A stretch of DNA of 56,581 nt from assembly GCA_041645325.1 (NCBI GenBank), contig JBAZQI010000003.1, positions 1 to 56,581 of the forward strand, given 5' to 3'. Under the pieces are notes generated by a model that had not been told where the DNA came from, did no database searches, and saw only the letters and a list, made by a program, of their open reading frames with translations. A program made the position numbers and the translations under genes. Position 1 is the stretch's first letter. Every line of letters starts with the position of its first letter. Below are positions 7,599 through 36,344 of this stretch, one piece after another. The stretch comes from an archaeon. GTDB taxonomy: Archaea > Iainarchaeota > Iainarchaeia > Iainarchaeales > GCA-2688035.

Positions 7599-7671
7599 CA
7601 TAGGTACATCCCTCAAATAAATGCCTTTTTTAACAGTTCTTGTTTTTTGTCTTTCAGGGTAATGAAACTTG

Positions 7672-10359
7672 ATGAAGATTGCCGTTGTTGGAACCGGCTA
7701 TGTCGGGCTTGTTGCAGGCACCTGCTTTGCCGATATGGGCCATGAGGTCATTTGCGTTGACATTGAAGAGGAAAAAATAAGGATGCTTAACGAAGGCAAG
7801 GTGCCGATTTTCGAGCCTGGGCTTGAGGATTTGATTAAGAAAAACGCCAGGGCAAAAAGGCTTTCCTTTACCACTGATTTTGACGATGCTGTGAAAAAAA
7901 GCGACATTATCTTCATTGCTGTTGGAACGCCGCCGAAGCCGAATGGCGACGCAGATTTGAGCTATATTGAGAATGTGGCGAGGGGAATTGCGGCTGCCGC
8001 AAAAAAGCCCAAGATTGTTGTTGAAAAAAGCACTGTTCCTGTTCAGACCTGTGAGAGGATAATCCAGGTGCTGGACTGCAATGACGGTGATGGCAATGGC
8101 AAGTGCGTGAAGCACGTTGTGGTAAGCAACCCCGAGTTTTTAAGGGAAGGGAGCGCGGTAAAGGATTTTTTGTTCCCTGACCGGATTGTGATTGGCACAG
8201 AGGACGAGCACGCGCGCAAGGCAATGGAGGAATTGTATGCTCCTTTGAAGGCAAAAATCCTTTTTACCGACATCAAGAGCGCGGAAATAATAAAGCACGC
8301 AAGCAACAGTTTTCTTGCAGCGAAAATCAGCTTCATCAACGCGGTTGCCAGCATCTGCGAAAAAACAGGCGCGGACATCGGAAGGGTCGCCGAAGGCATG
8401 GGCTTGGACAAGCGCATTGGGGCAAGCTTCCTGAATGCGGGCATTGGTTATGGCGGCTTCTGCTTTTCCGGCAAAGAGCTTGTTTTTGCCGGGAATCCTT
8501 CTGTTCAGCCAACTGCTTTTGAAGATGCTTTCAATGGCTTTGACAGCAAAAAGGATTTCAGGTGCCTTGTTTTTAAGAATGGCGCTGTGGTTGAAGCGCC
8601 TTTGGTTGGCTTTTCCAAGAGGCACTTTAAAGGCGAAATGCTTTCGATTTCTACTGCAATGGGGCGAAGCATAGAAGTAACTGCAGAGCACCCTTTGCCT
8701 GTTGTGAAGGGCGGCAAAATGTTTGTGAAGGAAGCTAAAAGTGTTGAAATCGGAGACGAGCTGCCTTTCATTGCAAGCCTGCCTGAGAAGCCTGTTGAAA
8801 GAATTGATTTAATTGATGCTATTTCAGGGCACCCTGGGTTTTTTTCTTCGATTAAACTCAGGCCAAAAAGCAAAAAACTCATTGATTTGAAGGGCAGAAT
8901 TGCCCCTTTCCTGAAAGTTTCCCCCATGGTGAAGCACGATTATTTCAGAAAGAACTATTTGCGGCTTAAGGATTTCCTGCAATTGGAAGCAGCTGGTGCA
9001 ATGCCTTTGCCAAGGGAAGAATTCATGCTTTTCACTGCAAAGGGCAATACGACTTATTTTCCGGCGATCCTAAAACTTGATGAAAGCTTTTGGCGGTTCG
9101 TTGGCTACTATCTGGCTGAAGGCGATATTTTTTATGAAAAGTGCGAAAGGGGCACAAGAAGCAGAATAAAAATAACATTTAATTCAAAAGAGAGGGAATA
9201 CATTGAAGATGTTTCCGGAATTTTGTCTTCCCTTGGAATAAAGTTTTTGCTTGGCAACTATGGGAAAACCGCAAGGTTCACTGTCAGCTCAAAGGTCTTT
9301 TGCTTTCTTTTGGATTCTGTTTTGAAATGCGGCAGGACAAGCTATGACGCAAATGTTCCTTCAATGGCTTTCCTGCAAAGCAAAGAAAACAAAAAAAGCC
9401 TGCTGCAGGGGCTGTTCAGGGGAGATGCTTACCCTTATTTCCACAAGCATGCAGAAGCCATTACAATAGAGTATGGCACTGTGAGCGAAAAGCTTGCAAA
9501 TTCAGTCATTGTTTTGCTGCAGTCTCTTGGCGTAGTGGCAAGCCGCAAAACACAGTTGATGAAAAAATCAACGGTTCCGGCGCATATTGTAAGGGTTTCC
9601 TGCAATAGCCAGGTAAGGAAGCTGTGCTTTTTTGACTCAGGCACGAACAAAAAAATTATTGCAAAGCTGTCTAAAAGCAGGAAAAAAATAAGGCCGATCG
9701 GGTTTAGGGAATACAAAGGCTTTTTTGGCTTAAAGGTCAAAAAAATCGAAAAGCGATTGGTGGAAAAAGATGTTTACTCTTTGCAGTTGCTTAAAGAACC
9801 GCACTTGTTTGTTTCCTCATACGGCTTGATTGCACACAACTGTTTTCCAAAGGACGTTGAGGCATTCATCAGGATTTCTGAAAAAAACGGCTATGATTTC
9901 AAGCTTTTGAAGGAAGTGCAGGCAGTCAACAATTTCCAGAAGCAAAACTTTGTGAAAAGGGTTGAGGATGCCCTTTGGAATCTGAATGGCAAGACAATCG
10001 GCGTGCTTGGGCTTGCGTTCAAGCCAAATACAGACGACATGCGCTTTGCGCCGAGCATTGACATAATCAACGCTTTGCTCAAGGAGGGTGCAAAGGTAAA
10101 GGCGTTTGACCCTGAGGCAATGGAAAGGGCAAAGGCAATTCTTGGCGGCAAAATAGAGTACTGCGAGGACATGTATGCCGTTGCACAGGGCGCTGACGCG
10201 CTTTTGTTCCTCACGGAATGGGATTGCTTCAAAAAGATTGATTTGGCAAAAGCCAAAAAGCTCCTGAAGCAGCCGTTTTTATTCGACGGCAGGAACATGT
10301 TTGACCCAAAGGAAATGCGTTCCCTTGGTTTCAAGTACGAAAGCATTGGAAGGTTGTAA
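7672..10359 (+). CDS. ugd: UDP-glucose 6-dehydrogenase interrupted by a 460-aa intein (mature extein ~435 aa)
   Basis: The N-terminal Rossmann motif MKIAVVGTGYVGLV and EFLREGSAVKDF are present. GIGYGGF | intein | CFPKDVEAF reconstitutes the catalytic GG-x-CFPKD motif. The C-terminal part has GLAFKPNTDDMR. The ATG at 7672 lies one codon inside the track TTG start. Confidence 0.92.
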   Translation: MKIAVVGTGYVGLVAGTCFADMGHEVICVDIEEEKIRMLNEGKVPIFEPGLEDLIKKNARAKRLSFTTDFDDAVKKSDIIFIAVGTPPKPNGDADLSYIENVARGIAAAAKKPKIVVEKSTVPVQTCERIIQVLDCNDGDGNGKCVKHVVVSNPEFLREGSAVKDFLFPDRIVIGTEDEHARKAMEELYAPLKAKILFTDIKSAEIIKHASNSFLAAKISFINAVASICEKTGADIGRVAEGMGLDKRIGASFLNAGIGYGGFCFSGKELVFAGNPSVQPTAFEDAFNGFDSKKDFRCLVFKNGAVVEAPLVGFSKRHFKGEMLSISTAMGRSIEVTAEHPLPVVKGGKMFVKEAKSVEIGDELPFIASLPEKPVERIDLIDAISGHPGFFSSIKLRPKSKKLIDLKGRIAPFLKVSPMVKHDYFRKNYLRLKDFLQLEAAGAMPLPREEFMLFTAKGNTTYFPAILKLDESFWRFVGYYLAEGDIFYEKCERGTRSRIKITFNSKEREYIEDVSGILSSLGIKFLLGNYGKTARFTVSSKVFCFLLDSVLKCGRTSYDANVPSMAFLQSKENKKSLLQGLFRGDAYPYFHKHAEAITIEYGTVSEKLANSVIVLLQSLGVVASRKTQLMKKSTVPAHIVRVSCNSQVRKLCFFDSGTNKKIIAKLSKSRKKIRPIGFREYKGFFGLKVKKIEKRLVEKDVYSLQLLKEPHLFVSSYGLIAHNCFPKDVEAFIRISEKNGYDFKLLKEVQAVNNFQKQNFVKRVEDALWNLNGKTIGVLGLAFKPNTDDMRFAPSIDIINALLKEGAKVKAFDPEAMERAKAILGGKIEYCEDMYAVAQGADALLFLTEWDCFKKIDLAKAKKLLKQPFLFDGRNMFDPKEMRSLGFKYESIGRL
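8461..9840 (+). mobile_element. Full-size intein with a LAGLIDADG homing-endonuclease domain, inserted immediately before the catalytic Cys of ugd
   Basis: It starts with Cys (CFSGKELVF), has block B VTAEHPL, two LAGLIDADG-type motifs (VGYYLAEGD and LLQGLFRGDAY), and ends ...GLIAHN followed by the +1 Cys (9841-9843). Its 1380 nt are in frame. Confidence 0.88.
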
Positions 10360-11150: not shown

Positions 11151-12092
11151 TTGAAAACTGCGGTGGTAACAGGTGGTGCCGGCTTCATCGGAAGCCATTT
11201 GTGTGAAGCCTTGCTTGAAAAAAAAATGAGGGTGATATGCGTTGACAATTTTGCCACCGGTGCAAGGGAAAACATTGCGCACCTGAAGCGGAATCCGGAT
11301 TTTTCGCTTTTGGAGCAGGACATCACAATTCCATTTGAAATTGAGGGCCGGGTTGATTTTGTTTTTAACCTTGCAAGCCCTGCTTCTCCCAAGGATTTTG
11401 CAAAAATGCCGGTGGAAATAATGCTCGTAAATTCCATCGGGACAAAAAACATGCTTGGCATTGCGCTTGCAAAAAAGGCGCGCTTTTTGGAGGCCTCAAC
11501 AAGCGAGGTCTACGGGCAGCCGTTGGAGCACCCGCAAAAGGAAACCTATTGGGGCAATGTGAATTCAATTGGGATGCGAAGCTGTTATGATGAGGGAAAG
11601 CGCTTCAGCGAAGCCCTTGCAATGGCATTTGCAAGAAATAAGGGTGTGGATGTGAGGATTGCGCGCATTTTCAACACTTATGGCCCAAGGATGCGATTGG
11701 ATGACGGCAGGGTAACGCCGAATTTCATCACGCAGGCACTTGCAGAAAAGCCGCTCACTGTTTACGGCGATGGCAAGCAGACAAGGTCTTTTTGCTTTGT
11801 AAGCGATTTGGTTGCAGGGCTGATGAAACTCATGGAATCAAATTATTCAGGGCCTGTTAACATTGGGAACCCGCAAGAAATAACTGTCAAGCAGTTTGCC
11901 GAAGCGGTTTTGAGGATTTCAAAAAGCAAGAGCGTGCTTTCCTTCAAAAAGCTTCCACAGGATGACCCTGAACGGAGAAAGCCGGACATTTCCCTTGCAA
12001 AAAAAGAGCTGGGCTGGGAGCCAAAAGTTTCTTTGGAAGAAGGGCTGTGCAAGACAGTCGAGTTCTTTAAGGCGAGGCTGGTTTTTTCATGA
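11151..12092 (+). CDS. uxs: UDP-glucuronate decarboxylase (UDP-xylose synthase), extended SDR
   Basis: [39 protein letters not shown] and [10 protein letters not shown] form the characteristic UXS motif set. It has a TTG start with AGGTG upstream and a TTTAAATAG box ~30 nt further up. Confidence 0.9.
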
Positions 12093-13369
12093 AGGCTGTT
12101 GCAATAATCGGATTGGGCTATGTCGGCTTGCCGCTTGCCTGCATTTGCGCAGGGAAGGGCTACAAGGTTATGGGCTTTGACCTTGATGCCGAAAAGGTTG
12201 CTTTGATAAACGCGGGAAAGAGCCCGATAAAGGATGCCTTTGTGGAAAAGCGGCTCGGGGCATTGAAAGGCAAAATCAGGGCTTCAACCGTTGCAAAAGA
12301 GGCGCTTGAGAAGGCGGATGTTGCCATTATTTGCGTTCCAACGCCTGCAATAAATGACAAGCCAGACCTTTCTTTTGTGAAAAGCGCTTGCGAGTCCCTT
12401 GCGCCTTTTGTTTCAAAAAAAGAGCTTGTGATTCTGGAATCAACCGTTTATCCAGGCACTGTGGAAGAAATAGTGAAGCCAATCCTTGAAAAGGGCTCCG
12501 GCCTTGAAGCCGAAAAAGATTTCTTTTTGGGGCATTGCCCTGAGCGCATTGACCCCGGCAACAAAAAATTCACCATAGAAAACATTCCGAGGGTAATTGC
12601 CTGCCTTTCTGTGCCGGGTACGGAAAAGGCAAAAAAATTCTACGAGAGCATTATTGACGCAAAGGTGACCGTGCTTGGCAGCGTCAAGGCGGCGGAAGCC
12701 GTGAAGGTTGTTGAAAACACTTTTCGGGACATAAACATTGCCTATGTGAACGAGCTTGCAAAGAGCTTTGACAGCATGGGCATTGACTTTTCAGAGGTGA
12801 TAAAGGGCGCGAGCACAAAGCCGTTTGGCTTCATGCCTTTTTACCCCGGGCCAGGCGTTGGAGGCCATTGCATTGCACAGGACCCTTATTATCTCATTGC
12901 AAGGTCAGAGAGCTTCGGCTTTGAGCCGAAGTTTTTGAAGCTTGCAAGGCAGATAAACGAAAGCATGCCATCTTACACGGTTTCGCTTGTTGAATCAATG
13001 CTTGGCAAAAGCGGCATTCAGGCCAGGGGAGCCAAGATTGCCCTGCTGGGCCTTTCTTACAAGCCTGATATTGATGATTCAAGGGAAAGCCCTGCATTGA
13101 AGATTCTTGCGCTGCTGAAGGAAAGGGGCGCCGACGTAAGGGCATTTGACCCTTTTGTGAAAAAGAAAAGCAATGCCGCTTCTTTGGAAGAGGCAATTAA
13201 AGGCTGTGATTGCGTTGTGCTTGCAACCCACCACGGGCAATTTATTGAAAAGCTTTCGCCCCCAATGCTCAAAAAATTGGGCGTTAAAATCGTGGTTGAC
13301 GCAAGGAATGTTTTGGACAAGGAAGGCATTTTGAAACAGGGCATTGCCTACAAGGGCATTGGAAGGTGA
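12089..13369 (+). CDS. Nucleotide-sugar 6-dehydrogenase, UDP-GlcNAc/ManNAc-dehydrogenase-like (UDPG_MGDP_dh family)
   Basis: AIIGLGYVGLPLA, the catalytic-Cys motif GPGVGGHCIAQDPYYL and GLSYKPDIDDSRESP are present. It overlaps uxs by 4 nt. Confidence 0.88.
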   Translation: MKAVAIIGLGYVGLPLACICAGKGYKVMGFDLDAEKVALINAGKSPIKDAFVEKRLGALKGKIRASTVAKEALEKADVAIICVPTPAINDKPDLSFVKSACESLAPFVSKKELVILESTVYPGTVEEIVKPILEKGSGLEAEKDFFLGHCPERIDPGNKKFTIENIPRVIACLSVPGTEKAKKFYESIIDAKVTVLGSVKAAEAVKVVENTFRDINIAYVNELAKSFDSMGIDFSEVIKGASTKPFGFMPFYPGPGVGGHCIAQDPYYLIARSESFGFEPKFLKLARQINESMPSYTVSLVESMLGKSGIQARGAKIALLGLSYKPDIDDSRESPALKILALLKERGADVRAFDPFVKKKSNAASLEEAIKGCDCVVLATHHGQFIEKLSPPMLKKLGVKIVVDARNVLDKEGILKQGIAYKGIGR

Positions 13370-13398: not shown

Positions 13399-13941
13399 TC
13401 ATTCCACAATCCACTTTTCTTTAACCAGTTTTTTGTACAGCTTTTCAGCGGACTCTTGCACCGATTCCTTGTCTGTTTCAAGCACCAGGTCCGGTTTTTT
13501 TGGTTCCTCGTAAGGCAGGTTTATTCCGAGGAAAGTTTCAAAGCCTGGTTTTTTTGCCTTTGCGTCCTTGTAATGGCCTTTTACATCCCTCTGCTCGCAT
13601 ACCTCCAAGGGGCATTTTACGAAAATTTCCAAAAAATTCCGGATACTGCTTTTTGCATAATCCCTGATTTCCTGCATGGGAGAGGCAACGCAGGCAATGT
13701 TCAGAACACCATTGCTTGAAATAAGCTCGCAGATGTCAGCAACCCTTTTGATGTGCTTATTCCTGTCTTCCCTTGAAAAGCCAAGGTCCGCAGAAATTTT
13801 TTTCCTTACTGCATCGCCATCCAAAACAACAAGCTTCACCCCGTTTTTCCTCAGCTTTTCCGCAAGCGCATTCGCAATAGTAGTCTTGCCGCTGCAATGC
13901 AAGCCAGTGAACCAGACTGTACCGCCTTTTGCTTGCATCAA
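13399..13941 (-). CDS. cysC: Adenylylsulfate (APS) kinase
   Basis: The P-loop VWFTGLHCSGKTTIA, LDGDAVRK and GFSREDRNKHIKRV are present. It overlaps sat by 4 nt. Confidence 0.92.
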   Translation of the reverse strand: MMQAKGGTVWFTGLHCSGKTTIANALAEKLRKNGVKLVVLDGDAVRKKISADLGFSREDRNKHIKRVADICELISSNGVLNIACVASPMQEIRDYAKSSIRNFLEIFVKCPLEVCEQRDVKGHYKDAKAKKPGFETFLGINLPYEEPKKPDLVLETDKESVQESAEKLYKKLVKEKWIVE

Positions 13942-15092
13942 ATCAAATCCTCCTTGCTTAAAACACCTGCAACCTCCGGCCTTATAAGGCCAGGGCTCAT
14001 TGGCTTGCCTTCCATCAAAAGGTTTCTCACTGTTGTGCCGCTGATTTTCTGGAAATGTTCCTTTTCTTCCTCTGGAACTGCCCCTTCTTCCAAGACAATG
14101 TCTTTTTCCTTGTGAAAGTAGTAAACCGTGTCAATTGAAATTGGCTCAATGCCAACGCTTTCAGCCATTGTTTCAAGCATCCTGCAGGCTTCATCTATTT
14201 TGTAAAAGTCTTTGCCGAAAGCGCTTTTGACGCCTGCGTGGTCCCTGCCTACGATGAAGTGCGTGCACCCGAAGTTTTTCCTGACAATTGCATGGAATAT
14301 CACGTCCTTTGGGCCGGCGTAAAACATTGTTGTTGAAAGGGTTGAAAGCAAGACCCTATTTTTCGGGTAATAGTTTTCTATAAGCTGTTTGTAGGCCCTG
14401 ACTATTGCCTCCGGGCTGAAGTCACCGGGCTTTCTCCAGCCAATGATTGGCTGAATCATCAGGCCATCGCATATTTCAAGCGCCCGCCTTTGAAGGTTTT
14501 CATGGCCCCTGTGCGGAACATTTCTTGTATGGAAAGCCGCAATTGTTTCCCAGCCCTTTTTCTTGAATATTTCCCTTGTTTGCTTTGGCGTAAAATGGCA
14601 GTCGCTTGGCTCATGTTCAAAGCTGCTAATCTGCGTTATTTTTCCGCCAACAAAAAAGTCATCCAGAGAGCACAATTTGCTTACTCCTGGGTGGCTCAAG
14701 TCAGTTGTGCCAAAAATTTTTTTTGCGATTTGCTTTTTGTCAAATTTGAAAGTTTCTTCGACGTCCATTATCGCCTGCAGCTTCCCATCGAAAAACAGTC
14801 CTGCCCTTTCCGCTTTTAGGCCTTTAAGCTCAAGCGCTTTCTCTTTCGGCACTGAAAGCAATATGGGAACTGACCAAGGCAGGCCGTTAGGCAGCTGCGT
14901 TTTTTCTGTGCATGAAAAAAGCTCTTCTTGGCGCATGAATCCCTCCAGAGGAGAAAACGCACCGGTTGCAATCAGTTCTATGTTCAGCAGAATGTCCCTG
15001 TCTGTGTCAATTCTTGCCTGAAACTCCGGCACCCTGCCATTGTGCAGTGCCCTGTCGACAAGTTTTCCGCCATACGGTTTGTTTATAGCCAT
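13938..15092 (-). CDS. sat: Sulfate adenylyltransferase (ATP sulfurylase)
   Basis: AFHTRNVPHRGHE and HFIVGRDHAGV are the ATP-sulfurylase signature motifs. An N-terminal PUA-like region is present. Confidence 0.92.
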   Translation of the reverse strand: MAINKPYGGKLVDRALHNGRVPEFQARIDTDRDILLNIELIATGAFSPLEGFMRQEELFSCTEKTQLPNGLPWSVPILLSVPKEKALELKGLKAERAGLFFDGKLQAIMDVEETFKFDKKQIAKKIFGTTDLSHPGVSKLCSLDDFFVGGKITQISSFEHEPSDCHFTPKQTREIFKKKGWETIAAFHTRNVPHRGHENLQRRALEICDGLMIQPIIGWRKPGDFSPEAIVRAYKQLIENYYPKNRVLLSTLSTTMFYAGPKDVIFHAIVRKNFGCTHFIVGRDHAGVKSAFGKDFYKIDEACRMLETMAESVGIEPISIDTVYYFHKEKDIVLEEGAVPEEEKEHFQKISGTTVRNLLMEGKPMSPGLIRPEVAGVLSKEDLI

Positions 15093-15095: not shown

Positions 15096-16796
15096 TTATC
15101 TTCCTTTTTGGCTCTTTTCCAGGTAGTCAAGGAACTCGCTTACCCTGTGCACTTCCAGAAGGTTTGTTTTCTTGACGCCGCTGTTGAAAACAGAGCCTGT
15201 AATCACAACCACTGACCTTTTTCCGATATATCCCTTCTGCATTGCCTTGAGTATTGCCTCTTTTTTATGTTCATTGGAGATATCATCAAGGCCTTTGCTT
15301 ATCAAAAGCGGGCAAACACCCCAAAGGATGTTAAGCTGCCTGAAAATTTTCTCGTTGGAAGTTGCGGCAATTATTTTTGGCAAAGGCATGTGGCTTGCAA
15401 TCATTCTTGCAGAGTATCCCCCGGATGTTAGGACAATGGTGGCATCAATCTCAAGCATTTTCTCCAGCTCGTAAATCGCTTTACCAATGGCATTGGTCAG
15501 ATTAACATCCCTCAAAGAGCCGTTCTCAATGGGCTTGATGTCGCCCTCCATTGCCTTGATTACTTTTGACATTGTTTCAACCGCTTCCAGCGGATATCTT
15601 CCAATTGCCGTTTCAGCCGAAAGCATTAGGCAGGAAGCGCCGTCCAAGACAGCGTTTGCAATGTCAGAAATTTCCGCCTTTGAAGCCTGATTGCTTTCAA
15701 TCATTGATTCGAGCATGTGGGTAGCGATTATCACCGGCTTTCCAACCCTATTGCATTCAAGAACGATTTTTTTCTGCATTTTTGGAACAAGCTCATAGGC
15801 TGTTTCGCTGCCCAAGTCGCCCCTGTCAATCATTATGCCATAAGCTTCCTTTATTATTTCCTTGTAGTTTGCTATTGCTTCTTTTGTTTCAATCTTTGCA
15901 ATAACTTTTGTCTTTGCGCTTATCACTTGGTTCAGGTTGCCATAGCCAAGCACCTCGTTCAAGGATTTAACATCCTCGGCTGTCCTGACAAAAGAATAGC
16001 CAACGAATTCCAAGTCGTTTTTTGCAGCAAACTCAGCCCACTTTCTGTCAACAGCTGAAATGCCACCATGCCCGAACTTTGTATCCGGGCAGTTGACGCC
16101 CTTGTTTTTTGCAATTGTGCCCTTTCCCGCAGACCTGCAAACAATTTCATTTTGGGAAACCTTTTCCGCAACAAGGCACAGCTTTCCGTCATCAATGAAG
16201 ATCTTGTCCCCTTTTTTGACAGAAGCAAAGAACTGCTCGTTTGGCAGGGGAATTCCTTTGCCTGGGCTTTCGGCGCTTTTCACAAATACGACTTTTTGCC
16301 CTTTTGCTACGTTGACTGGCGCCTCAATGGCAGTAAGCCTGATTTTTGGGCCTGGAATGTCCAAAAGAATCGGAACCTCCTTTGAAACAGACCTTATCAG
16401 GTTAACGAGCTTTAGTGCTGAGTCCTCAGTGCAGTGGGAAGCATTAAGCCGTGCGGCATCCATTCCTTTCTCAATAAGTCTTGCAATGGTTTTCCTGTCA
16501 GCCGAAGCCGGCCCGATTGTGCACAGTATCTTGGTTTTTTTGAAGCTTGAATCGGCAATTGTTTTCTCAAGTTCAGCCAGGGCAGAAAGCGCTTTGGGGC
16601 TGTTTTTAAAACAGTAAAGCAACTGGTTTTCATGGCTGGCTGATCCGACCAGCTTTTGCTTTTCAAATTCCTTCAGTATCTTGAAGGCGCTGCCCACGCT
16701 TATGCCAAGAAGCCTTGCTATCTGGTTGACGTTAAAGCTCTTGTCTGCGTTTTCAGAAAGGAGTTCAAGAACCCTAAAAGCATTTCTCCCGGCCAT
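15096..16796 (-). CDS. pyk: Pyruvate kinase with an extra ~85-aa N-terminal winged-helix-turn-helix domain
   Basis: Residues 1-~60 (AFRVLELLSENADKSFNVNQIARLLGISVGSAFKILKEFEKQKLV) look like a MarR/TrmB/IclR-type wHTH. PK motifs follow: TKILCTIGPAS, RLNASHC, DIPGPKIR, AKIETKEA, MIDRGDLGSE, THMLESM and LMLSAETAIGRYP. The stop lies 3 nt from the sat start. Confidence 0.88.
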   Translation of the reverse strand: MAGRNAFRVLELLSENADKSFNVNQIARLLGISVGSAFKILKEFEKQKLVGSASHENQLLYCFKNSPKALSALAELEKTIADSSFKKTKILCTIGPASADRKTIARLIEKGMDAARLNASHCTEDSALKLVNLIRSVSKEVPILLDIPGPKIRLTAIEAPVNVAKGQKVVFVKSAESPGKGIPLPNEQFFASVKKGDKIFIDDGKLCLVAEKVSQNEIVCRSAGKGTIAKNKGVNCPDTKFGHGGISAVDRKWAEFAAKNDLEFVGYSFVRTAEDVKSLNEVLGYGNLNQVISAKTKVIAKIETKEAIANYKEIIKEAYGIMIDRGDLGSETAYELVPKMQKKIVLECNRVGKPVIIATHMLESMIESNQASKAEISDIANAVLDGASCLMLSAETAIGRYPLEAVETMSKVIKAMEGDIKPIENGSLRDVNLTNAIGKAIYELEKMLEIDATIVLTSGGYSARMIASHMPLPKIIAATSNEKIFRQLNILWGVCPLLISKGLDDISNEHKKEAILKAMQKGYIGKRSVVVITGSVFNSGVKKTNLLEVHRVSEFLDYLEKSQKGR

Positions 16797-16810
16797 CTTT
16801 TCACCAAAAA

Positions 16811-16842
16811 AGTGAATAATATTTTAACAATAGTGAATAATA
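16811..16842. promoter_or_regulatory. Phased direct repeat AGTGAATAATA-N10-AGTGAATAATA over the HTH-pyk promoter; candidate operator
   Basis: There are two identical 11-mers, 21 nt start to start, lying ~15-45 nt upstream of the pyk ATG and interleaved with AT-rich TATA-like sequence and a GGTGA SD. Confidence 0.35.
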
Positions 16843-16952
16843 CTGGTGTGGTTGTATTTAAAAAGGTTTTCAGCAAGCGGCTGGCATGCTGAACAAATGA
16901 ATAATTAACACGCGGCTTGACTGCTTTTCTGCTTCAAGCACATGCCGCCATT

Positions 16953-17678
16953 TCATGCCTTGTTTTTTTCCGCTAGTTTTTTTGTGAGCGCGTAGAAGTC
17001 GAAAACCATTTTTATCCACACTCCGGTCCAAACAACTGTGAATATTAATAGCAGGGGGAATATTTGGTTTGTCAGGGCACCTACAGTAATCAGCGCCATG
17101 CTCAGGCCCCTGTTCCCTATTCTTCTTTTGCTGCTGATGCCAACCGTTGGCTTCAGGTCGCTTTTTTCCACATATCTTGCCCTTGTTGAAACCATATATG
17201 AAACCATTGCAAAGCTTATGACTGCCGGAATCCCTGCAATCAGAAAAGCAGCGTCATTCAGCAAGAAGTATTGGCCTATTGCTGCGGCTCCCATAAAGGC
17301 GGCGGTTGAATAAAAGTCAACCGTTGGATCAAGCCATGCCCCAAATGGGCTTCCTGTTTTGTTGATTCTTGCTATTTCGCCGTCAACGCAGTCAAGGATG
17401 AATGAAACCTGCAGCAGCAGCACGCCTGCGACAAGGTAAGGGTATTGCCCAAAAAGGAACAGCCCTGCGCCCACTAAGGCAACAGCAAATGCAGCAAGCG
17501 TGATTTGCCATGGGAGAATGCCTTTTTTGTAAAGTCGCATTGTTATTCTTGTGCTGAGCTTTCTGTAATTTCCCATTATGATGCAGTCGCTTTCCTTAAA
17601 GCAAACCGCCTGCAGTTCTTTTAATGAAAGTTCGTTGGCCTTGCTTTTCATTTCCTTTCCATTGTTTTTCCGCGCCAT
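16953..17678 (-). CDS. CDP-alcohol phosphatidyltransferase family membrane protein
   Basis: LDCVDGEIARINKTGSPFGAWLDPTVD fits D-x2-D-G-x2-A-R...G-x3-D-x3-D. Multiple TM helices are present. Confidence 0.8.
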   Translation of the reverse strand: MARKNNGKEMKSKANELSLKELQAVCFKESDCIIMGNYRKLSTRITMRLYKKGILPWQITLAAFAVALVGAGLFLFGQYPYLVAGVLLLQVSFILDCVDGEIARINKTGSPFGAWLDPTVDFYSTAAFMGAAAIGQYFLLNDAAFLIAGIPAVISFAMVSYMVSTRARYVEKSDLKPTVGISSKRRIGNRGLSMALITVGALTNQIFPLLLIFTVVWTGVWIKMVFDFYALTKKLAEKNKA

Positions 17679-17772: not shown

Positions 17773-19137
17773 TCAAATGATATTAATATATGCGTTATTG
17801 CTTTGTTCCCCTTTGTACTGCTTTTTTTTGAACATTTCCAATGCCTTGCCAATTGATTTTTTTAGCGTAAATTTGATTCCCGCACGGCCAATCTTGCCAT
17901 GCCCGGGTTCAAAATTATTATTTGCCTTTTTCATTTCAATTTCTTTAATTGAATAACTTGCCTCTTCCATACCTGCAATTGCTTCCTTTCCTTTAAACAA
18001 AATTCTGACGGAGAAATCTTTGTTCTTATTGCCTGTTTTAATGAAAACTTTTTCGCCGTCAAAGAATGCGTCAAAATCAGTTTTTTCCCTTTTAAGCCAC
18101 CATTGTGAAAACTCTTCCACGTTGGTCATCCAAACATTGCATTTTTCCGCGTATTCGAACATTTGCGAAACAACCCGGGGAAAGCGGGCAATTGCTTTGA
18201 ATGGATGCCCATAAAAGAAACAAGGAACGTTATTGCCCAGGTTTCTGTCAAAAGCCGCCTTGAAATAATCCAACATTTGCTTTTCGTTGAAATCCCTTGT
18301 CTTCAGTATTTCAATGCAGATTGGGTGGATGCCAATAAGCAATGTCTTTCCCTTCAGGTGAAATGGAAGGCAGTCATATCCCGCCCCAAATCCAACAGCA
18401 TATTCATAACCGCAGGAAACAAGTGCTGATATCATGTGTTCATTCAACAGGCCGTTTGGAGCGCAGAATCCCTTTGGCCGCAGGCCATTTGCCTTAAAGA
18501 ATCTGTCGGAAGCAATTACGTTTTCATAATCTTTTTCGGAACCAAAGAACTCATGCCTGAAATTGTGGTTGCCCACAATTTCATCGCTGAGCAGGCTTAA
18601 TATGGTTTTATCCGCTTTAATTGCTTCGCAATTGACAAACCAAACTGCCCTTTTGTGCTTTAAAACATCAATGGCTTTTTTGGTATCCGGCCGGCAGTCA
18701 AAATCAACATCAACATGGAAGCCGAATGCACTGCCGAACTTTTTGGGATAAAACCATTTATGGACAAAGGGCAATCCCCTGCTTTCAAATTTTTCCGTTA
18801 ATAGCCTGATAAAATCAAATGTATTTTTGCCTTTATGGCAGAAAGAAACAACTTCCGGAACACCGGTTTTTCCTCCGATAAAACCTTTTTCAATGGCCTT
18901 GTAATCGTGCAAATTGCCGGCATTGCAATCATGCAAAACCGAACCGCCTCCGGCAGCAAACTTTTCAATAAGCTTGTTTTCCTGTGGGGCAAGTTCTCTT
19001 GCAATAACCATGACGGAAAAATCTTCCAAGGAGAATGGCTTGTTGAAATCAACAATTTTATACGGCGAACCTATTTGTTCCAGCAGTTCCTGGGCTTCGG
19101 TTCCTTTCCCAACCAATCCGATGCACAACGGCTTCAT
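17773..19137 (-). CDS. Polysaccharide-deacetylase-like (NodB-fold?) protein with an uncharacterised N-terminal domain
   Basis: AFGFHVDVDFD...VGNHNFRH...FCAPNG resembles the metal-binding motifs of CE4-like deacetylases. I prefer the ATG at 19137 (MKPLCIGLVGKG), which leaves a 26-nt gap to the upstream gene. The track start at 19245 would overlap that gene by 82 nt. Confidence 0.55.
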   Translation of the reverse strand: MKPLCIGLVGKGTEAQELLEQIGSPYKIVDFNKPFSLEDFSVMVIARELAPQENKLIEKFAAGGGSVLHDCNAGNLHDYKAIEKGFIGGKTGVPEVVSFCHKGKNTFDFIRLLTEKFESRGLPFVHKWFYPKKFGSAFGFHVDVDFDCRPDTKKAIDVLKHKRAVWFVNCEAIKADKTILSLLSDEIVGNHNFRHEFFGSEKDYENVIASDRFFKANGLRPKGFCAPNGLLNEHMISALVSCGYEYAVGFGAGYDCLPFHLKGKTLLIGIHPICIEILKTRDFNEKQMLDYFKAAFDRNLGNNVPCFFYGHPFKAIARFPRVVSQMFEYAEKCNVWMTNVEEFSQWWLKREKTDFDAFFDGEKVFIKTGNKNKDFSVRILFKGKEAIAGMEEASYSIKEIEMKKANNNFEPGHGKIGRAGIKFTLKKSIGKALEMFKKKQYKGEQSNNAYINII

Positions 19138-19163
19138 ATAATTATCCTTCAAACAAACTTTTT

Positions 19164-20072
19164 CTATCCAGCCTTTTTTTGCTCTTGCTCTTCCTTGCTG
19201 ATTGCATAAATAGTTTCTCCCTTTTCCGCCAGGCTTCGCAGGCACCTGAAGACCCCGTTAACTGGCAAGGAACAGCAATATCCCCTGCCAATAAATGTTT
19301 CGCTTATTATCCCCTCTTCCCTGAAATGATTCTTTATCCTCTTTATTATTGCCGGATTTTTGTCAATGCAATAATTGTGGAATTCCGGGTCGTGCGCTTT
19401 TGTTTCAATCTCGCGTGTTTTTCCCTGGTTGTCAATGCTTTTGACGCTGTAAGCCTTTGGCAAGTAAATCGGCAAAGGAAACTCTTTCATTGAGTCTTCC
19501 ACGGCGTGATAGAAACTTATTGTATCAATATCAACGCCGAGGCAGACAATCTTTGCATCCAAAGACAACAGCTTGTAAAACGGGCTGTGCTCATCGAAAG
19601 GGGTTTTTGATTCCAACGTATCTTTTATAAGGTACTTGGCGTGCTTTCCGCATACCGCAACAGAATGTGTGGGATGCAGGCTCCTTTCAACGCCGTCAAA
19701 TTTTCTAAAACATTCTGTTATTGTGCCGACAACCGATTTACTTTTTTCTGCGTCAAAAGGCTGTATATCGTGCAGGTTAAATCCATGGAAGGTCGGCATC
19801 AAAACCGTGCCTTCTTCACCAACCTGTTCAAGAATGGATTCTATTACGGTTTTTGCCCCGCCTTCAACAAAGCCGAAAGAACTCAATGAACTGTGGACTT
19901 CAACAGCATCCCCTTTTTTTATTCCGAGTTCTTCAAGGCCTTTCAGGAACATTTCTTTGGTAACTATCTTTTTTGTAAGGTAATTGCCGTAAGCTTTTAG
20001 CCTTTTGGGCAGCCGCATTATTTTTTTTCCAATGGGCTTTGCCTGGCGCGGTATAAGCTTTTTAATATTCAT
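19164..20072 (-). CDS. AAC(3)-family (aminoglycoside 3-N-acetyltransferase fold) acyltransferase
   Basis: KGDAVEVHSSLSSFGFVEGGAKTVIESILEQVGEEGTVLMPTF matches the HSS-x-S-x-G...GG...G-x-GT-x-x-MPT pattern of Antibiotic_NAT proteins. The start is uncertain (20099, 20072 or 20018). Confidence 0.72.
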   Translation of the reverse strand: MNIKKLIPRQAKPIGKKIMRLPKRLKAYGNYLTKKIVTKEMFLKGLEELGIKKGDAVEVHSSLSSFGFVEGGAKTVIESILEQVGEEGTVLMPTFHGFNLHDIQPFDAEKSKSVVGTITECFRKFDGVERSLHPTHSVAVCGKHAKYLIKDTLESKTPFDEHSPFYKLLSLDAKIVCLGVDIDTISFYHAVEDSMKEFPLPIYLPKAYSVKSIDNQGKTREIETKAHDPEFHNYCIDKNPAIIKRIKNHFREEGIISETFIGRGYCCSLPVNGVFRCLRSLAEKGETIYAISKEEQEQKKAG

Positions 20073-22532: not shown

Positions 22533-24233
22533 TTATTTGCCTAAAATAAAATTTCCAATTACCAAACAATCAACTCTTTTATCTTTGAACGCATTTATTG
22601 CATCTACTGGTGAACATACAATCGGTTCTTCATGTGCATTAAAAGAAGTGTTTACAAACAGGGGCAAGCCACTGGCATCCTGATAAGCTTTTAATGTCTG
22701 ATAATAAAGTTTGTTTGATTCTTTGCAAACAACTTGCGGCCTTGCAGTTCCATCGACATGAACAACAGCCCCTGCCATTTTTTGCTTTTCTTTTGGAACA
22801 TCGAAAGTAATCGTCATAAACTTTGAAGGATACTTTGCATTTTCATAACCTGTAAAATAGTTCTTGGCTTCTTCTTCTAAAATTGAAGGGGCAAAAGGCA
22901 TAAACTCGGTTCTTGAAAGCCGCTTATTCAAACTGTCATTAATGCCCTTATCAGTCGGCTTTGCAACAATGCTTCTGTTGCCCAGGGCACGCGGGCCGTA
23001 TTCCATTCTTCCCTGGAACAAGCCGACAATCTTTCCTTCATCAATTCTGGCGGCAACCTCTGTGGGAATGTCATTGTAGTCTTTTGCGTTGAGTCCATTG
23101 TCAGTGATAGCCTGCTGGATTTCTTCATTGTTGAATTCCGGCCCAAAGTAAACGTCATTTAAGGCAAAGGGCTTGATGTTGGCTTGGTTTAGTGCTGCGC
23201 CAAGTGCAGTGCCGCCATCGCCCATATGTGGATGCACAAATATGCTTTCAACATTTGGCAAAGCCAAAAGCCTTTGGTTTAGTTTAACATTTGCAAACAC
23301 GCCTCCGGCCAAAACAACATTAGAAATGCCCGTCTTGTCAACCCAATATGAAACATACTTTGACAAAACATTTTCCAAATGAATTTGAACACTTGCAGCT
23401 AAATTCGCCTTATTAAAATTTCCAAGTTCTTTCTTAATCTTATTCAAAGCAGCATCATGTTTTGCTTTTAAATAATTAACAGTTCTGCCATTATTGTAAT
23501 TAATCCAATTCTCGAAATTTGGCAAGTATTCTGGTTTTCCAAAAGCGGCCAAACCAGTAATTTTTCCCTCATGCTTGTTTGAAGTAAAACCGCATAACTC
23601 TGTGACATAAGAGTAATATTTTCCAACACTATTGTAACTGCCTAACTCACTCAATCTTTCCATGTGACCATTTTCAGCAACAGAAATAGTTGAACACAAA
23701 GCATCGCCAGCAGCATCATAAGTGACAACTAAAGCCTTATTCAAACCGCCGGTAAAGTAAGCACAGGCGGCATGGCATTGATGATGCTCCACAAATTCAA
23801 CATCGCAATCAAAACCATGTCCCTTCAACCAAGCTTTCAACTTCTTATTGCGCTTCCAATACCATTGACCATACAAATTTTCGCCAAACTTTTGGATTCC
23901 AATGAAATAGTCTTTATTAAACAAATCTCCCAACAAAAAGGCGGCAGAACCAAGAAATTGCCTTGGCCCCATTATTACATTCATTGTCTGTACTTGCTTT
24001 AATGAAATTGGTTTTGGAAACCAGGGGGCATGCCAATTCGCAACAGCAATCAAATCAATATCCTTTGGCTCAAGTTTAGCCTGCTTCAAAACGCAATCAA
24101 TAGACTGTAGAGGAAGTCCTCGCACAAGTTTTATGCGATTAAGCCTTTCCTCATTCACAGCCGCAACAATCTTCCCATCCTTTACAACAGCAACTCCGCA
24201 ATCATGCCCATCACTCAACCCCAATACGTTCAT
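22533..24233 (-). CDS. Carbamoyltransferase, NodU/CmcH family
   Basis: MNVLGLSDGHDCGVAVVKDGKIVAAVNEERLNRIK is the ASKHA-type N-terminus typical of the family. ...HHQCHAACAY... is present, and the C-terminal YrdC-like part has NTSFNAHEEPIV. Confidence 0.9.
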   Translation of the reverse strand: MNVLGLSDGHDCGVAVVKDGKIVAAVNEERLNRIKLVRGLPLQSIDCVLKQAKLEPKDIDLIAVANWHAPWFPKPISLKQVQTMNVIMGPRQFLGSAAFLLGDLFNKDYFIGIQKFGENLYGQWYWKRNKKLKAWLKGHGFDCDVEFVEHHQCHAACAYFTGGLNKALVVTYDAAGDALCSTISVAENGHMERLSELGSYNSVGKYYSYVTELCGFTSNKHEGKITGLAAFGKPEYLPNFENWINYNNGRTVNYLKAKHDAALNKIKKELGNFNKANLAASVQIHLENVLSKYVSYWVDKTGISNVVLAGGVFANVKLNQRLLALPNVESIFVHPHMGDGGTALGAALNQANIKPFALNDVYFGPEFNNEEIQQAITDNGLNAKDYNDIPTEVAARIDEGKIVGLFQGRMEYGPRALGNRSIVAKPTDKGINDSLNKRLSRTEFMPFAPSILEEEAKNYFTGYENAKYPSKFMTITFDVPKEKQKMAGAVVHVDGTARPQVVCKESNKLYYQTLKAYQDASGLPLFVNTSFNAHEEPIVCSPVDAINAFKDKRVDCLVIGNFILGK

Positions 24234-27969: not shown

Positions 27970-29382
27970 TCACTTCATGTACTGCAGCAGGCTCCACCCG
28001 CTTCTAAAGCTTGACTTTAGCAAATTCCAGTTTGTGAGCCTCTGCTTTAAAGCCTTGAGCATGTAACTTGGCCTCAGGTAGTATTCCTTGTATGCCTGCT
28101 TGAGCCAGTACTGCATGTCCTGCATGCTGAGGCCGGGGTATTCAAAAATCGGCCTGATTTTTCCCTCGCAGTCAAGGTAGTCTGCCCAGTTTTTGAACCT
28201 GAGGTAACCTTTGCTTTTGAGAAACTCGTAGAATTCTGTTCCGGGGTATGGCTGGGCAACGCTGAACTGCACAAAATCAATGTTAAGCTGTTTTGCAAAC
28301 TCTATGGTTTTCTTGATGCTTTCAACTGTTTCGCCAGGCATTCCAAAAACAAATGTTCCATGCACCTGTATGCCTGCATCCTCAAATAATTTTGCGGCTT
28401 TTTTTGCCTGTTCTGTTGTGGCCCTCGGCCCCTTTTTCATGTTTTTCAGCTGTTCGTCACAGCCTGATTCAAAGCCAACCTTTACCAAAAAACATCCGGC
28501 TTTTTTCATTGCCTCCGCAATCTCCTTGTCAACGGAGTCAACCCTGCTGTAGGCGGCCCAGGGAAGGTTAATTTTTTCCTTAACCATCAAGCCGCACAAT
28601 TCAAGCAGGTATTTTTTGTTGACATTGAGGGTGTCATCGTTGAATAATACGCTTTTGAACTTGAAATTTTCTTTAAGGTGCTTGAGTTCTGCGACAACGT
28701 TTTCAGGAGACCTCATCCTGTAGCCCCTGCCATACATCAGCTGGGGCCCTGCGCAATAAATGCATTGGTGCGGGCAGCCCCTTCCGGCAAGCACAAAAGT
28801 GAAGGGATTCTTGTACAATGCAGAGTAATATTTTTCGTTTGGCAGCAGTTCCCTTGCCGGAAACGGAAGCTTATCAAGGTCCTGAATCAGCGGCCTTGCC
28901 TTGTTATGTATAATCTTTTTGCCTTTCTTGAACGAAATGCCTTCAATTTCCTCAAGCCTGGCTCCTTCGGCCAAATCCCTTATGGTGTAATCGTATTCGC
29001 CCCTTGCCACAATATCAAAGCCCTTGTCCAAGGTGTCTTCGGGAACAGCTGTTGCATGCACTCCGACAGCAATTGTTTTTGCGCCTGTTTTTGCCGCGAT
29101 TTTTTTTGCAATGCCCGCATCGCTTTCAACAGAGGCAGTTGAGGTAAGCATTACCACATACTCTGGTTCAAAGCCTGAAATTCTTTCAATTGTGGCTTCT
29201 TCGCCGATTTCAAGGGCTGGCGCGTCGATTAGGTCAACCTCGTGCCCGTTTCTTTGGCAGACTGCTGCGGCATAGCCCAGCATTATCGGCGGATGCAGGG
29301 CTTTTTGGGGCGAGACTGCCTGAAACCTGACTTCCCTGTTGTACGTCCCCCTGAACGGTGGGTTCAAAAATACGATATTCAT
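27970..29382 (-). CDS. Cobalamin-binding (class B) radical SAM enzyme
   Basis: An N-terminal B12-type Rossmann domain (LGYAAAVCQRNGHEVDLIDA) and the radical SAM cluster motif GRGCPHQCIYC are present. It is a paralog of 51606-53090. Confidence 0.88.
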   Translation of the reverse strand: MNIVFLNPPFRGTYNREVRFQAVSPQKALHPPIMLGYAAAVCQRNGHEVDLIDAPALEIGEEATIERISGFEPEYVVMLTSTASVESDAGIAKKIAAKTGAKTIAVGVHATAVPEDTLDKGFDIVARGEYDYTIRDLAEGARLEEIEGISFKKGKKIIHNKARPLIQDLDKLPFPARELLPNEKYYSALYKNPFTFVLAGRGCPHQCIYCAGPQLMYGRGYRMRSPENVVAELKHLKENFKFKSVLFNDDTLNVNKKYLLELCGLMVKEKINLPWAAYSRVDSVDKEIAEAMKKAGCFLVKVGFESGCDEQLKNMKKGPRATTEQAKKAAKLFEDAGIQVHGTFVFGMPGETVESIKKTIEFAKQLNIDFVQFSVAQPYPGTEFYEFLKSKGYLRFKNWADYLDCEGKIRPIFEYPGLSMQDMQYWLKQAYKEYYLRPSYMLKALKQRLTNWNLLKSSFRSGWSLLQYMK

Positions 29383-29502: not shown

Positions 29503-30795
29503 ATGGCAAAGCATTCGATAACCCTGGTTAACCCTGCTTTCGGCGTTTATGTTGCGCATCCCAGCCCGCCGCTTGGACTAGCCTATCTCAAGGCCGCTCT
29601 TGAAAAGAACGGAATACCTGCTGTGCTTGTTGATGAAACAGCAGGAATGTCAATAACGCCTGAATCAATTGAAACGGAGTGGGTCGGCATTTCGGTTTTT
29701 ACGCCAACAGCCAAGATGGCTTACGAAATGGCCGATGCATTCAGGGCAATCGGGAAAAAGGTTGTGCTTGGCGGCCCGCATGTTTCAATACTGCCAAAAG
29801 AGGCGCTGAGGCATGCCGACAAGGTTATTGTCGGCGAGGGCGAAAAAAGCATTCTTGAGATTTTTTCGTCAAAGAAAAAGGTAATAAGCAGCCTGCTCAT
29901 AAAAGACATTGATTCAATTCTTTTTCCGGACTGGCACGGCCTTCCTTTGGAAAAGTACACGGCGCCTACAAGAAAGCACGCCTATCTCAAGGTCATGACT
30001 TCAAGGGGCTGCCCCTGGGGCTGTGTCTACTGCTTTAAGGGCGTTTTTGGCCGCTGTTACAGGATGAGATCGTTCCAAAACGTGGTTGATGAGGTTGAGG
30101 CATTGCAAGCCGAGTATGGCACAAGGGAAATTGCTTTCATTGATGACAATTTTTCGCAAAACAGGGAAAGGACAGTTGACATCTGCCGGGAAATCCTGCA
30201 AAGGCGGATAAAGATTGACTGGGCCTGCCCGAATGGCGTGAGGGTTGACACAATGGATTTGCCTTTGCTTAAGCTCATGAAAAAGGCGGGCTGTTACCAG
30301 CTTTCTTTCGGCGTTGAGTCTGGAAACCAGGAAGTGCTTGACAAAATCGGAAAAGGCATTAAATTGGAGCAGGTTGAAAATGCAGTGGGGTGGGCGAAGG
30401 AAGCTGGCATTGAAACAATCGGCTTTTTTATGATAGGCCTGCCTTTTGACAATGAGAAAACAATGCAGCAGACAATTGATTTTGCAAAAAAATTGCCGTT
30501 GGACCTTGTGCAGTTCACGGTAACAGTTCCATACCCCGGAACAGAGCTTTACGGCATGGTTGAAAAAAAAGGCAGGTTTTTGGTAGAGGACTGGAGCGCT
30601 TTCGGCAGCTATTCCGGAAAAGCCTATTACGAGTTCGGGGCCCTTGACAAGGACTTGGTCGAAAGAATGTACAAGAAGGCCTACAAGGAGGTTTACTTCA
30701 GGCCCGGTTATGCCCTGAAAAGGGTTGCAAAGAATCCAAAGCTTTTGCTCTCAGGCGTGAAATACTTCTCGGCAATGTTCGGGAAAAAGAATTGA
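29503..30795 (+). CDS. Cobalamin-binding (class B) radical SAM enzyme
   Basis: LGLAYLKAALEKNGIPAVLVDE is the B12 domain and SRGCPWGCVYC is the C-x3-C-x2-C motif. It is divergent from 27970-29382. Confidence 0.88.
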   Translation: MAKHSITLVNPAFGVYVAHPSPPLGLAYLKAALEKNGIPAVLVDETAGMSITPESIETEWVGISVFTPTAKMAYEMADAFRAIGKKVVLGGPHVSILPKEALRHADKVIVGEGEKSILEIFSSKKKVISSLLIKDIDSILFPDWHGLPLEKYTAPTRKHAYLKVMTSRGCPWGCVYCFKGVFGRCYRMRSFQNVVDEVEALQAEYGTREIAFIDDNFSQNRERTVDICREILQRRIKIDWACPNGVRVDTMDLPLLKLMKKAGCYQLSFGVESGNQEVLDKIGKGIKLEQVENAVGWAKEAGIETIGFFMIGLPFDNEKTMQQTIDFAKKLPLDLVQFTVTVPYPGTELYGMVEKKGRFLVEDWSAFGSYSGKAYYEFGALDKDLVERMYKKAYKEVYFRPGYALKRVAKNPKLLLSGVKYFSAMFGKKN

Positions 30796-31908: not shown

Positions 31909-32043
31909 ATTTAACCAATTCTGCCTTTTAACTCTTTTAAAACCGTTATTTTTTGATTAACGTACTATACTATTATGGTTTTCTTTAAATACCCTTTCGG
32001 ATTAACTCTAGTAAATGCCATCCGGTTTTTTTCAGGGCTTTTT

Positions 32044-36338: not shown

Positions 36339-36344
36339 GCTAAT

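Follow-up and report, generated by a model that had tools for sequence, protein, structure and literature searches.

A winged-helix pyruvate kinase as a predicted enzyme and putative autorepressor of a sulfate-activation operon in DPANN archaea

The DNA analysed here, a stretch of 56,581 nucleotides from an archaeon of the Iainarchaeota (contig JBAZQI010000003.1 of assembly GCA_041645325.1; hereafter the window), encodes a pyruvate kinase (PK) that carries a winged helix-turn-helix (wHTH) domain at its N terminus and opens an operon with sat and cysC, the genes of ATP sulfurylase and adenosine 5'-phosphosulfate (APS) kinase. Comparison of this protein, here named wHTH-PK, and of its promoter with those of its relatives suggests that it is probably bifunctional, being both an enzyme and the autorepressor of its operon for 3'-phosphoadenosine 5'-phosphosulfate (PAPS) synthesis, with the wHTH binding the ATTCA[C/T]T sites of the operon promoter. 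Specifically, for wHTH-PK we infer DNA binding, repression, ligand gating and ATP recycling. In the literature, we found no description of a wHTH-PK fusion or of a natural PK-sat-cysC operon.

The 566-amino-acid protein is encoded by a single open reading frame (ORF) with an ATG start, as given by the ORF listing. Its stop codon and the start of sat are joined as TAA-GCG-ATG in a shared frame, with the gap of 3 nt that the initial annotation of this DNA had noted; the 4-nt overlap between sat and cysC given there holds when cysC starts at its TTG, and becomes 1 nt (TGATG) with the adjacent ATG. As the gene after cysC is convergent, the operon consists of three genes. The packing of the PK gene into one operon with sat and cysC is real and is conserved among its relatives.

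Evidence for autoregulation comes from the promoter. All three matches to ATTATTCACT in the window (up to 1 mismatch, both strands) fall at 16811-16905, inside one 156-nt promoter spacer that separates wHTH-PK from a CDP-alcohol phosphatidyltransferase-family gene, and a TATA-like box precedes the two main sites by 13 and 34 nt (Table 1). The same arrangement was observed in the upstream DNA of the homologues, in which a TATA box (TTTATATA or TTTATAAA) is followed within 5-15 nt by copies of ATTCA[C/T]T, many relatives bearing an extra site upstream as well. We counted 32 ATTCA[CT]T sites in 21 non-redundant upstream regions of 90 nt. This density of 16.9 per kb is 33-fold higher than the 0.51 per kb of the surrounding DNA (653 kb), and 2000 composition-preserving shuffles gave 1.7 sites on average and 7 at most. 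Sites paired within 45 nt are almost confined to the wHTH-PK promoter, and the spacing of the pair is 20-21 nt in 13 distinct relatives and in the window. In the deeper-branching loci (L003, L005, L094, L095 and L135; L numbers denote loci), the half-site appears as a palindrome, TGAAT-N4-ATTCA, a rearrangement that would be typical of real binding sites. The persistence and rearrangement of the motif over deep divergence suggest that it is under selection. As a control, the upstream regions of 46 canonical PK genes without a wHTH contained 0.93 sites per kb, and none of the 46 had two. We considered whether the motif might be an element of promoters or initiators in general and rejected this, as it is present at 1 of about 50 promoters in the window, has a background of 0.5 per kb and is lacking in canonical PK genes.

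The motif also accompanies the wHTH in a second, unrelated class of proteins. A first profile search of genome contigs with a 120-residue N-terminal alignment returned mostly canonical PKs, as KKTKI was the motif used, and the informative loci were L008, L009, L041 and L079. A later search of metagenome contigs used the wHTH alone and returned 80 loci; together with the earlier loci, 63 wHTH proteins are minimal nucleotidyltransferase (MNT) fusions of about 194-203 amino acids and 23 are PK fusions. Over about 60 residues, the wHTH domains of the two classes are 37-55% identical. The motif stands directly after the TATA box in 53 of 56 non-redundant wHTH-MNT genes, most of whose promoters have the nearly invariant form TTTATATA-ATTCAT-N6-TGAAT-N4-ATTCACT. 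Thus the sites of the wHTH-MNT genes form a palindrome with one extra copy, whereas those of wHTH-PK are two direct repeats 21 nt apart. The wHTH-MNT genes are abundant in DPANN archaea (L079 6001-7048, L041 6001-7054 and most of L096-L167), and in two loci that were read closely a small downstream gene follows, resembling a HEPN-MNT toxin-antitoxin pair. wHTH-PK is not a member of this group, since its C-terminal part is a PK rather than an MNT and the next gene is sat rather than HEPN. Two otherwise unrelated classes of proteins that share only the wHTH and the cis-element are the classic signature, in comparative genomics, of an autoregulating DNA-binding domain, and the operators of the archaeal regulator RbkR were defined by the same logic (PMC5397151). 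The comparison also suggests that the fusion most likely originated when the promoter-operator-wHTH cassette of a wHTH-MNT gene was joined to a PK. The initial annotation had proposed a transcription factor that still works as an enzyme; the conserved pair of sites past the TATA box and the motif in front of unrelated genes sharing the wHTH lend strong indirect support to its regulatory part.

We then examined whether the N-terminal extension has the properties of a DNA-binding domain. The Pfam family MarR_2 matched residues 4-50 with 28.3 bits (gathering score 27), HTH_IclR scored 21.9 against a cut-off of 22, and several further wHTH models also fell under their cut-offs. An AlphaFold2 (AF2) model of the full-length protein, based on an alignment of 51 sequences, had a mean predicted local distance difference test (pLDDT) score of 89.7, with 94-97 for residues 10-70, and consisted, ahead of the PK, of the three helices (H1-H3) and wing hairpin listed in Table 1 and of a long helix running into the PK barrel. 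The isolated 80 residues gave the same fold with a pLDDT of 91. In a Foldseek search of the PDB, the best matches of the isolated wHTH were DNA-binding repressors with TM scores of 0.64-0.76, belonging to the MarR family (ZitR, AdcR, MepR and MarR itself) and to the ArsR/SmtB and PadR regulators (AntR, SmtB, CzrA, HlyU and PadR-like proteins). These results agree with the wHTH assignment made in the initial annotation. The N- and C-terminal dimerisation helices of the MarR fold, which spans about 140 amino acids, are absent, as wHTH-PK has just H1-H3, the wing and one helix (residues 1-83) before the PK; the domain is therefore MarR-like in fold and not a member of the MarR family, with which it shares the wHTH core. 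The connecting helix is a possible dimerisation element in the model.

The extension belongs to the same polypeptide as the PK, as had been proposed from the lack of an internal Met ahead of TKILCTIGPAS. The N-terminal 85 residues are conserved at the protein level, with 35-45% identity, in more than 20 homologues, which shows that the extension is translated and rules out an internal start; the same conservation led us to reject the possibility that the fusion is a gene-calling artefact. Residues N5, N24, I32, S33, G35 and Y61 are invariant across the family, and Q25, S36, I40 and K42 nearly so. In the structure search, no PDB chain spanned residues 1-50, and a few alignments to eukaryotic PKs started as far back as residue 51.

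The remainder of the protein is an intact PK. The window protein scored 418.2 bits against the NCBIfam equivalog TIGR01064 (pyruv_kin; cut-off 306.4), with 291.9 bits for the barrel family PF00224 (threshold 30) and 76.7 bits for the C-terminal family PF02887 (threshold 28), and its nearest matches among solved structures are bacterial PKs of the ordinary kind, whose alignments cover residues 85-554. Every catalytic motif listed in the initial annotation was found, together with the lid (B) domain, and the catalytic residues of the window protein are R116/N118/S120, D146, K151, R153, K232, K301/E303, G326/D327, T359 and S393/E395. In the family alignment, the residues corresponding to R72, N74, D112, R119, K206, K269, E271, G294, D295, T327, S361 and E363 of the rabbit muscle enzyme are kept in all 19 full-length members; S76 is kept in 17, with Ala in P0011 and P0020 as in some canonical PKs. 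The motif D-[I/L/M]-P-G-x-K-[I/V]-R places a Lys at the equivalent of Glu117 and a hydrophobic residue at 113. These two features, as opposed to the Glu117 and Thr113 of K+-dependent enzymes, are the signature of K+-independent PKs, and bacterial PKs with L113-Q114-K117 in the same alignment share Lys117 with the wHTH-PK family (I/L/M113-P114-K117). On the basis of these residues, wHTH-PK looks catalytically competent and of the K+-independent type. With canonical K+-independent PKs it has in common the A, B and C domains, the catalytic residues and these two positions; it differs from them in the 85-residue wHTH and helix, in a Pro in place of Gln/Lys at 114, in forming a separate clade and in never standing in a glycolytic context.

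The fusion defines a small clade. A word-index search recovered about 20 full-length fusions of 558-573 amino acids and about 45 shorter relatives; the named homologues come from Woesearchaeota or Nanoarchaeota. In an exhaustive HMMER scan of 1.84 billion representatives at 50% identity, about 5 belong to the fusion clade, and a drop in bit score from 421 to 314 sets the first canonical PK apart from them. The fusion is confined to DPANN archaea. In a rough neighbor-joining tree without bootstrap, the clade is monophyletic and stands beside the canonical PKs of archaea. The window protein recurs on other contigs (one among the matches listed, plus two similar), which excludes a one-off assembly artefact, and independent contigs, with no more than 39-51% identity between their proteins, repeat both the fusion and the gene order, which places the architecture far beyond chance.

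Next to wHTH-PK, the genes of sulfate activation are the rule. In 12 of the 12 full-length loci with downstream sequence (the window, L001, L003, L004, L005, L008, L094, L095, L099, L100, L105 and L135), the next gene is sat, and cysC follows sat wherever the contig continues. The earlier remark that sulfate activation does not normally have PK as a neighbour stands in general and fails within the fusion clade. A PHP-family protein usually comes next after cysC in the relatives; its best NCBIfam matches, both under their cut-offs, are RNase RNM (E 1.8e-50) and 3',5'-nucleoside bisphosphate phosphatase (E 2.4e-48), making it a candidate phosphatase for 3'-phosphoadenosine 5'-phosphate (PAP). 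L003 has an inositol-monophosphatase-family gene upstream instead, and the module has a CDP-OH_P_transf gene nearby in L001, L003, L004, L005 and L168. In L168 (1306-5191), wHTH, PK and sat form one ORF of 935 amino acids, preceded by the same pair of operator sites and followed by a fusion of an NT5C-type nucleotidase with APS kinase (358 amino acids). As PK and sat share a frame in the window and are 3 nt apart, the loss of one stop codon would suffice to produce such a fusion. This Rosetta-stone fusion, seen in a single contig, supports a physical and functional link between PK and ATP sulfurylase. The locus of the distant relative L005 (1-5200, 10152-12729) contains, besides its wHTH-PK/sat/cysC/PHP module, two sulfatase-family genes, a gene similar to the RuBisCO large subunit, and a 369-amino-acid thiamine pyrophosphate enzyme with an Fe-alcohol dehydrogenase as its neighbour.

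The shorter relatives of about 455-475 amino acids form a branch in which the enzyme has decayed. These proteins keep the wHTH, the operator pair and the effector loop of the C domain, and have lost the entire lid domain, including R119 and K206; D295 is lost in all, and N74, K269, E271, T327 or E363 variously. The retention of the wHTH and operator pair indicates that the regulatory half was kept even where catalysis was lost. The phosphate-loop motif of the C domain, TSGGYSAR, is conserved throughout the family, and its conservation even in these pseudoenzymes fits a retained ligand pocket. In the rough neighbor-joining tree, they form one subclade, sister to the subgroup of the window. In their loci (L006 8431-11230, L007 6812-9594, also L091 and L098), sat is replaced by proteins of 356, 362 and about 210 amino acids, after which PHP and cysC follow. 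The first two are paralogues with 38% identity that share a nucleotidyltransferase-like motif (GS...SDIDI). In Pfam and NCBIfam, the 356-amino-acid protein had a weak sub-threshold match to NTP_transf_2 alone, and the 362-amino-acid and the ~210-amino-acid (212-amino-acid) proteins had no match; a stretch HLHIK in the latter is reminiscent of HIT proteins. The proteins replacing sat may make APS, or an activated nucleotide related to it, by another route.

Taken together, these observations can be arranged into a putative mechanism. The wHTH of the PK fusion would bind the ATTCA[C/T]T sites of its own promoter. In archaea, the transcription start usually follows the TATA box by about 25 nt, so that the distal site covers the start point and the proximal site the early transcript. 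Many archaeal repressors block the recruitment of RNA polymerase, and bound wHTH-PK may do the same, repressing the wHTH-PK/sat/cysC operon. PKs are oligomers whose activation involves rigid-body rotations of their subunits. Repeats two helical turns apart would face several wHTH domains of one PK oligomer, and rotation of the subunits would shift the relative placement of these domains, linking the occupancy of ligands to DNA affinity. Phosphoenolpyruvate (PEP), adenine nucleotides or an effector of the C domain could set the conformation of the PK, hence the affinity for DNA, and in this way the expression of the ATP-costly PAPS pathway would track the supply of energy or precursors. That an AMP-like nucleotide of the pathway (APS, PAPS or PAP) is the effector of the C domain is an attractive yet wholly speculative idea. 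At the same time, wHTH-PK may turn the ADP released by APS kinase, with PEP, back into ATP beside the enzymes that consume it.

This last step was the second proposal of the initial annotation, a dedicated ATP-regenerating partner of sat and cysC. It would fit the synteny, the wHTH-PK-sat fusion and practice in vitro, where PK and PEP are needed to regenerate ATP for efficient PAPS synthesis, which all but fails when they are left out (PMC9885120); the part that does not hold is a pull on the ATP-sulfurylase step by PK alone, as pyrophosphate (PPi) is not removed. The natural operon, with a natural fusion in one contig, brings together the same three activities as that engineered mixture. Regulation and ATP regeneration are compatible, both plausible and most likely both true, the former having strong comparative support and the latter contextual support.

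Several points weigh against this interpretation. DNA binding, repression and PK activity are predictions, and the score of MarR_2 barely clears its threshold (28.3 vs 27). Four of the 21 upstream regions have no site, among them that of L094, whose start is mis-called and which has the palindrome just upstream. The ATTCA[C/T]T motif could be bound by a paralogous wHTH-MNT protein and not by the PK fusion, or the motif and the wHTH may merely be co-inherited from the ancestral cassette. Since the lid-less clade is monophyletic, the link between an intact PK and sat rests on one evolutionary event. On the metabolic side, PK removes ADP and not PPi, which leaves the equilibrium of ATP sulfurylase unrelieved, and Pfam scans of about 46 ORFs in the window revealed no sulfotransferase, as a consumer of PAPS, and no PAP phosphatase.

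Among other explanations, we considered wHTH-PK as a pure regulator, in which the PK body is a ligand-sensing and oligomerising scaffold whose turnover has no physiological role in the operon. The lid-less subclade lends itself to this explanation: it no longer has the lid or the metal-binding and catalytic residues but retains the wHTH, both operator sites, the effector loop and the first place in a related operon, so that the regulatory half is the part always conserved. It nevertheless appears unlikely, since the lid-less clade arose once, coinciding with the replacement of sat, and since the retention of the lid and of the catalytic residues (apart from the two Ala at S76) by 19 of 19 full-length members at 39-51% identity would be hard to explain otherwise than by selection for catalysis. 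The opposite possibility, that the protein is an enzyme only, would make the wHTH a relic or a surface for protein-protein contacts and assign the sites to another factor, for example a wHTH-MNT paralogue; such paralogues occur commonly in the same metagenomes as the PK fusions, their recognition helix is almost the same, and their products are expected to recognise the same motif. We consider this quite unlikely given that the residues of the recognition helix vary little or not at all among the PK fusions (N24, Q25, I32, S33, G35, S36, I40 and K42), that sites and wHTH co-occur in two architectures and that PK genes without a wHTH have no site pairs; autoregulation by the encoded wHTH is the simpler reading.

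A different chemistry, in which the PK-family domain uses PEP or a nucleotide with another phosphoryl acceptor or nucleoside diphosphate, specific to sulfur or glycan metabolism, could account for the clear separation of the clade from canonical PKs (the bit-score gap described above), for substitutions specific to the family (DRGDLG for ARGDLG, DGAS for DGTD) and for its consistently non-glycolytic context. The score above the TIGR01064 equivalog cut-off and the fully canonical residues for binding of PEP, metal and nucleotide make it improbable, and nothing points to a particular alternative substrate. Finally, the homologues are labelled plainly as 'pyruvate kinase' in the databases, as would be expected if the protein were a normal housekeeping PK whose N-terminal extension and neighbours are due to chance, or an artefact of assembly or gene calling. 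We regard this as extremely improbable: more than 20 independent contigs, drawn from different samples, share the fusion, the gene order and the promoter sites, the extension shows conservation at the protein level and a wHTH fold, and the identity of 39-51% among loci excludes a single mobile element that spread recently.

The preferred reading, an enzyme that is also an autorepressor, can be extended into a more specific proposal, which we hold to be possible and rather doubtful. A glycolytic enzyme would here have become a sequence-specific archaeal repressor whose allosteric state is read from how its four N-terminal wHTH domains are spaced or oriented on two sites 21 nt apart; its effector pocket, retained and of the AMP/sugar-phosphate type, may sense APS, PAPS or PAP; the fusion would have arisen by capture of a toxin-antitoxin cassette, and one lineage would have decayed to a pseudo-kinase transcription factor of a sat-less, sulfation-related module.

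Proteins that combine a catalyst with a sequence-specific repressor are known as trigger enzymes in bacteria, such as BirA, NadR and PutA. These differ from wHTH-PK in being bacterial, in having no PK domain and in using other DNA-binding folds in other contexts, and the target of wHTH-PK is a sulfate-activation operon. Regarding what defines such a bifunctional regulator, wHTH-PK unites an enzyme and a DNA-binding domain in one polypeptide and has, by computation, a candidate operator at its own promoter, with sites that are conserved, enriched and fixed in position. A close parallel is RbkR, an archaeal wHTH-riboflavin kinase whose DNA binding is tuned by the substrate and product of the kinase and whose operators were first defined by comparative genomics in archaea (PMC5397151). 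Both are archaeal polypeptides made of a wHTH and a small-molecule kinase, with autoregulation that is predicted in the case of wHTH-PK. RbkR is a CTP-dependent riboflavin kinase with a wHTH of another lineage and another motif, and regulates the pathway of its own substrate, whereas wHTH-PK is a large three-domain PK, an ATP generator of central metabolism outside the pathway that it would regulate; RbkR has been validated experimentally, whereas wHTH-PK is known from sequence and models. The wHTH-MNT proteins of DPANN archaea, HEPN-adjacent and toxin-antitoxin-like, resemble wHTH-PK in their wHTH subfamily and in the order of TATA box and motif.

If true, wHTH-PK would be the first PK of prokaryotes with demonstrated sequence-specific binding to DNA. 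Few DPANN archaea have been cultivated and regulation in them is almost unknown; wHTH-PK would offer a concrete pairing of regulator, operator and operon in this group. Its operon would be a natural counterpart of the cascade of PK, ATP sulfurylase and APS kinase assembled by hand, and the fused variants might channel nucleotides. The family may also represent an evolutionary series, from an antitoxin-type wHTH cassette through an enzyme-repressor fusion to a pseudoenzyme regulator, and it points to the sulfation of surface glycans or lipids as a regulated and energetically budgeted trait of ultrasmall archaea.

Table 1. Coordinates of the wHTH-PK operon, its protein domains and its promoter elements in the window
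Feature	Position	Strand	Basis
wHTH-pyruvate kinase gene, 566 aa, operon gene 1	15096..16796	-	ORF; Pfam and NCBIfam matches; full-length AF2 model, pLDDT 89.7
Winged-helix core, residues 1-66 (H1 4-15, H2 23-30, recognition helix H3 34-46, wing hairpin 50-63)	16599..16796	-	MarR_2, AF2, Foldseek, family invariants
Connecting helix, residues 67-85, wHTH to PK	16542..16598	-	Both AF2 models show a helix at 67-83
Barrel (A) catalytic domain of the PK, into which the B (lid) domain is inserted, residues 86-406	15579..16541	-	PF00224, E 7.7e-87; catalytic residues; alignment to S. aureus PK 3t05
PK B (lid) domain, roughly residues 154-247	16056-16337	-	
PK C-terminal (allosteric/effector) domain, residues 435-550	15147..15494	-	PF02887, E 2e-21; conserved T457, G459, G460, A463, R464
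sat, ATP sulfurylase (PUA_2 + ATP-sulfurylase)	13938..15092	-	ORF, Pfam, NCBIfam; starts 3 nt past PK stop, same frame
cysC, APS kinase, final operon gene	13399..13941	-	ORF, Pfam, NCBIfam; overlaps sat stop
CDP-alcohol phosphatidyltransferase-family gene, recurrent module neighbour	16953..17678	-	PF01066; archaetidylinositol-phosphate-synthase-like matches
Shine-Dalgarno-like GGTGA	16801..16805	-	4 nt (AAAG, 16797-16800) before ATG; read from sequence
Archaeal TATA-like box TTTAAATA of operon promoter	16855..16862	-	Same position as TTTATATA/TTTATAAA in homologous loci
Distal candidate operator ATTATTCACT	16832..16841	-	13 nt downstream of TATA box, over expected transcription start; conserved across loci
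Proximal candidate operator ATTATTCACT	16811..16820	-	21 nt from distal site
Third upstream copy ATTATTCATT, 1 mismatch	16896..16905	-	Upstream of TATA box

The window as a whole is a large island of glycan biosynthesis, with many glycosyltransferases, nucleotide-sugar enzymes, a NeuB/CMP-sugar module, flippases, methyltransferases and a carbamoyltransferase. The glycan sulfation suggested in the initial annotation has contextual support only; the ORFs scanned gave no match to a sulfotransferase family. A tblastn search of the window gave no match to the PHP and inositol-phosphatase neighbours of the relatives, and tRNA and Rfam scans of the window returned no matches. A 551-amino-acid protein at 32015-33670 has no family match, and a 490-amino-acid protein at 17773-19245 is a weak homologue of polysaccharide deacetylases. 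A UDP-glucose/GDP-mannose dehydrogenase gene at 7669-10359 (+) is split by an intein with a LAGLIDADG homing-endonuclease domain, and a second, uninterrupted paralogue lies at 12089-13369. The island also contains three B12-binding radical S-adenosylmethionine (SAM) enzymes (27970-29382 (-), 29503-30795 (+) and 51606-53090 (-)), several SAM methyltransferases and the carbamoyltransferase at 22533-24233, a set of enzymes that suggests heavily decorated sugars. The nonulosonic-acid module at 35307-40764 (-) comprises a Polysacc_synt_2 dehydratase, a DegT aminotransferase, a CTP_transf_3 cytidylyltransferase fusion and the NeuB synthase; NeuB uses PEP, which is also the substrate of the PK encoded 20 kb away.

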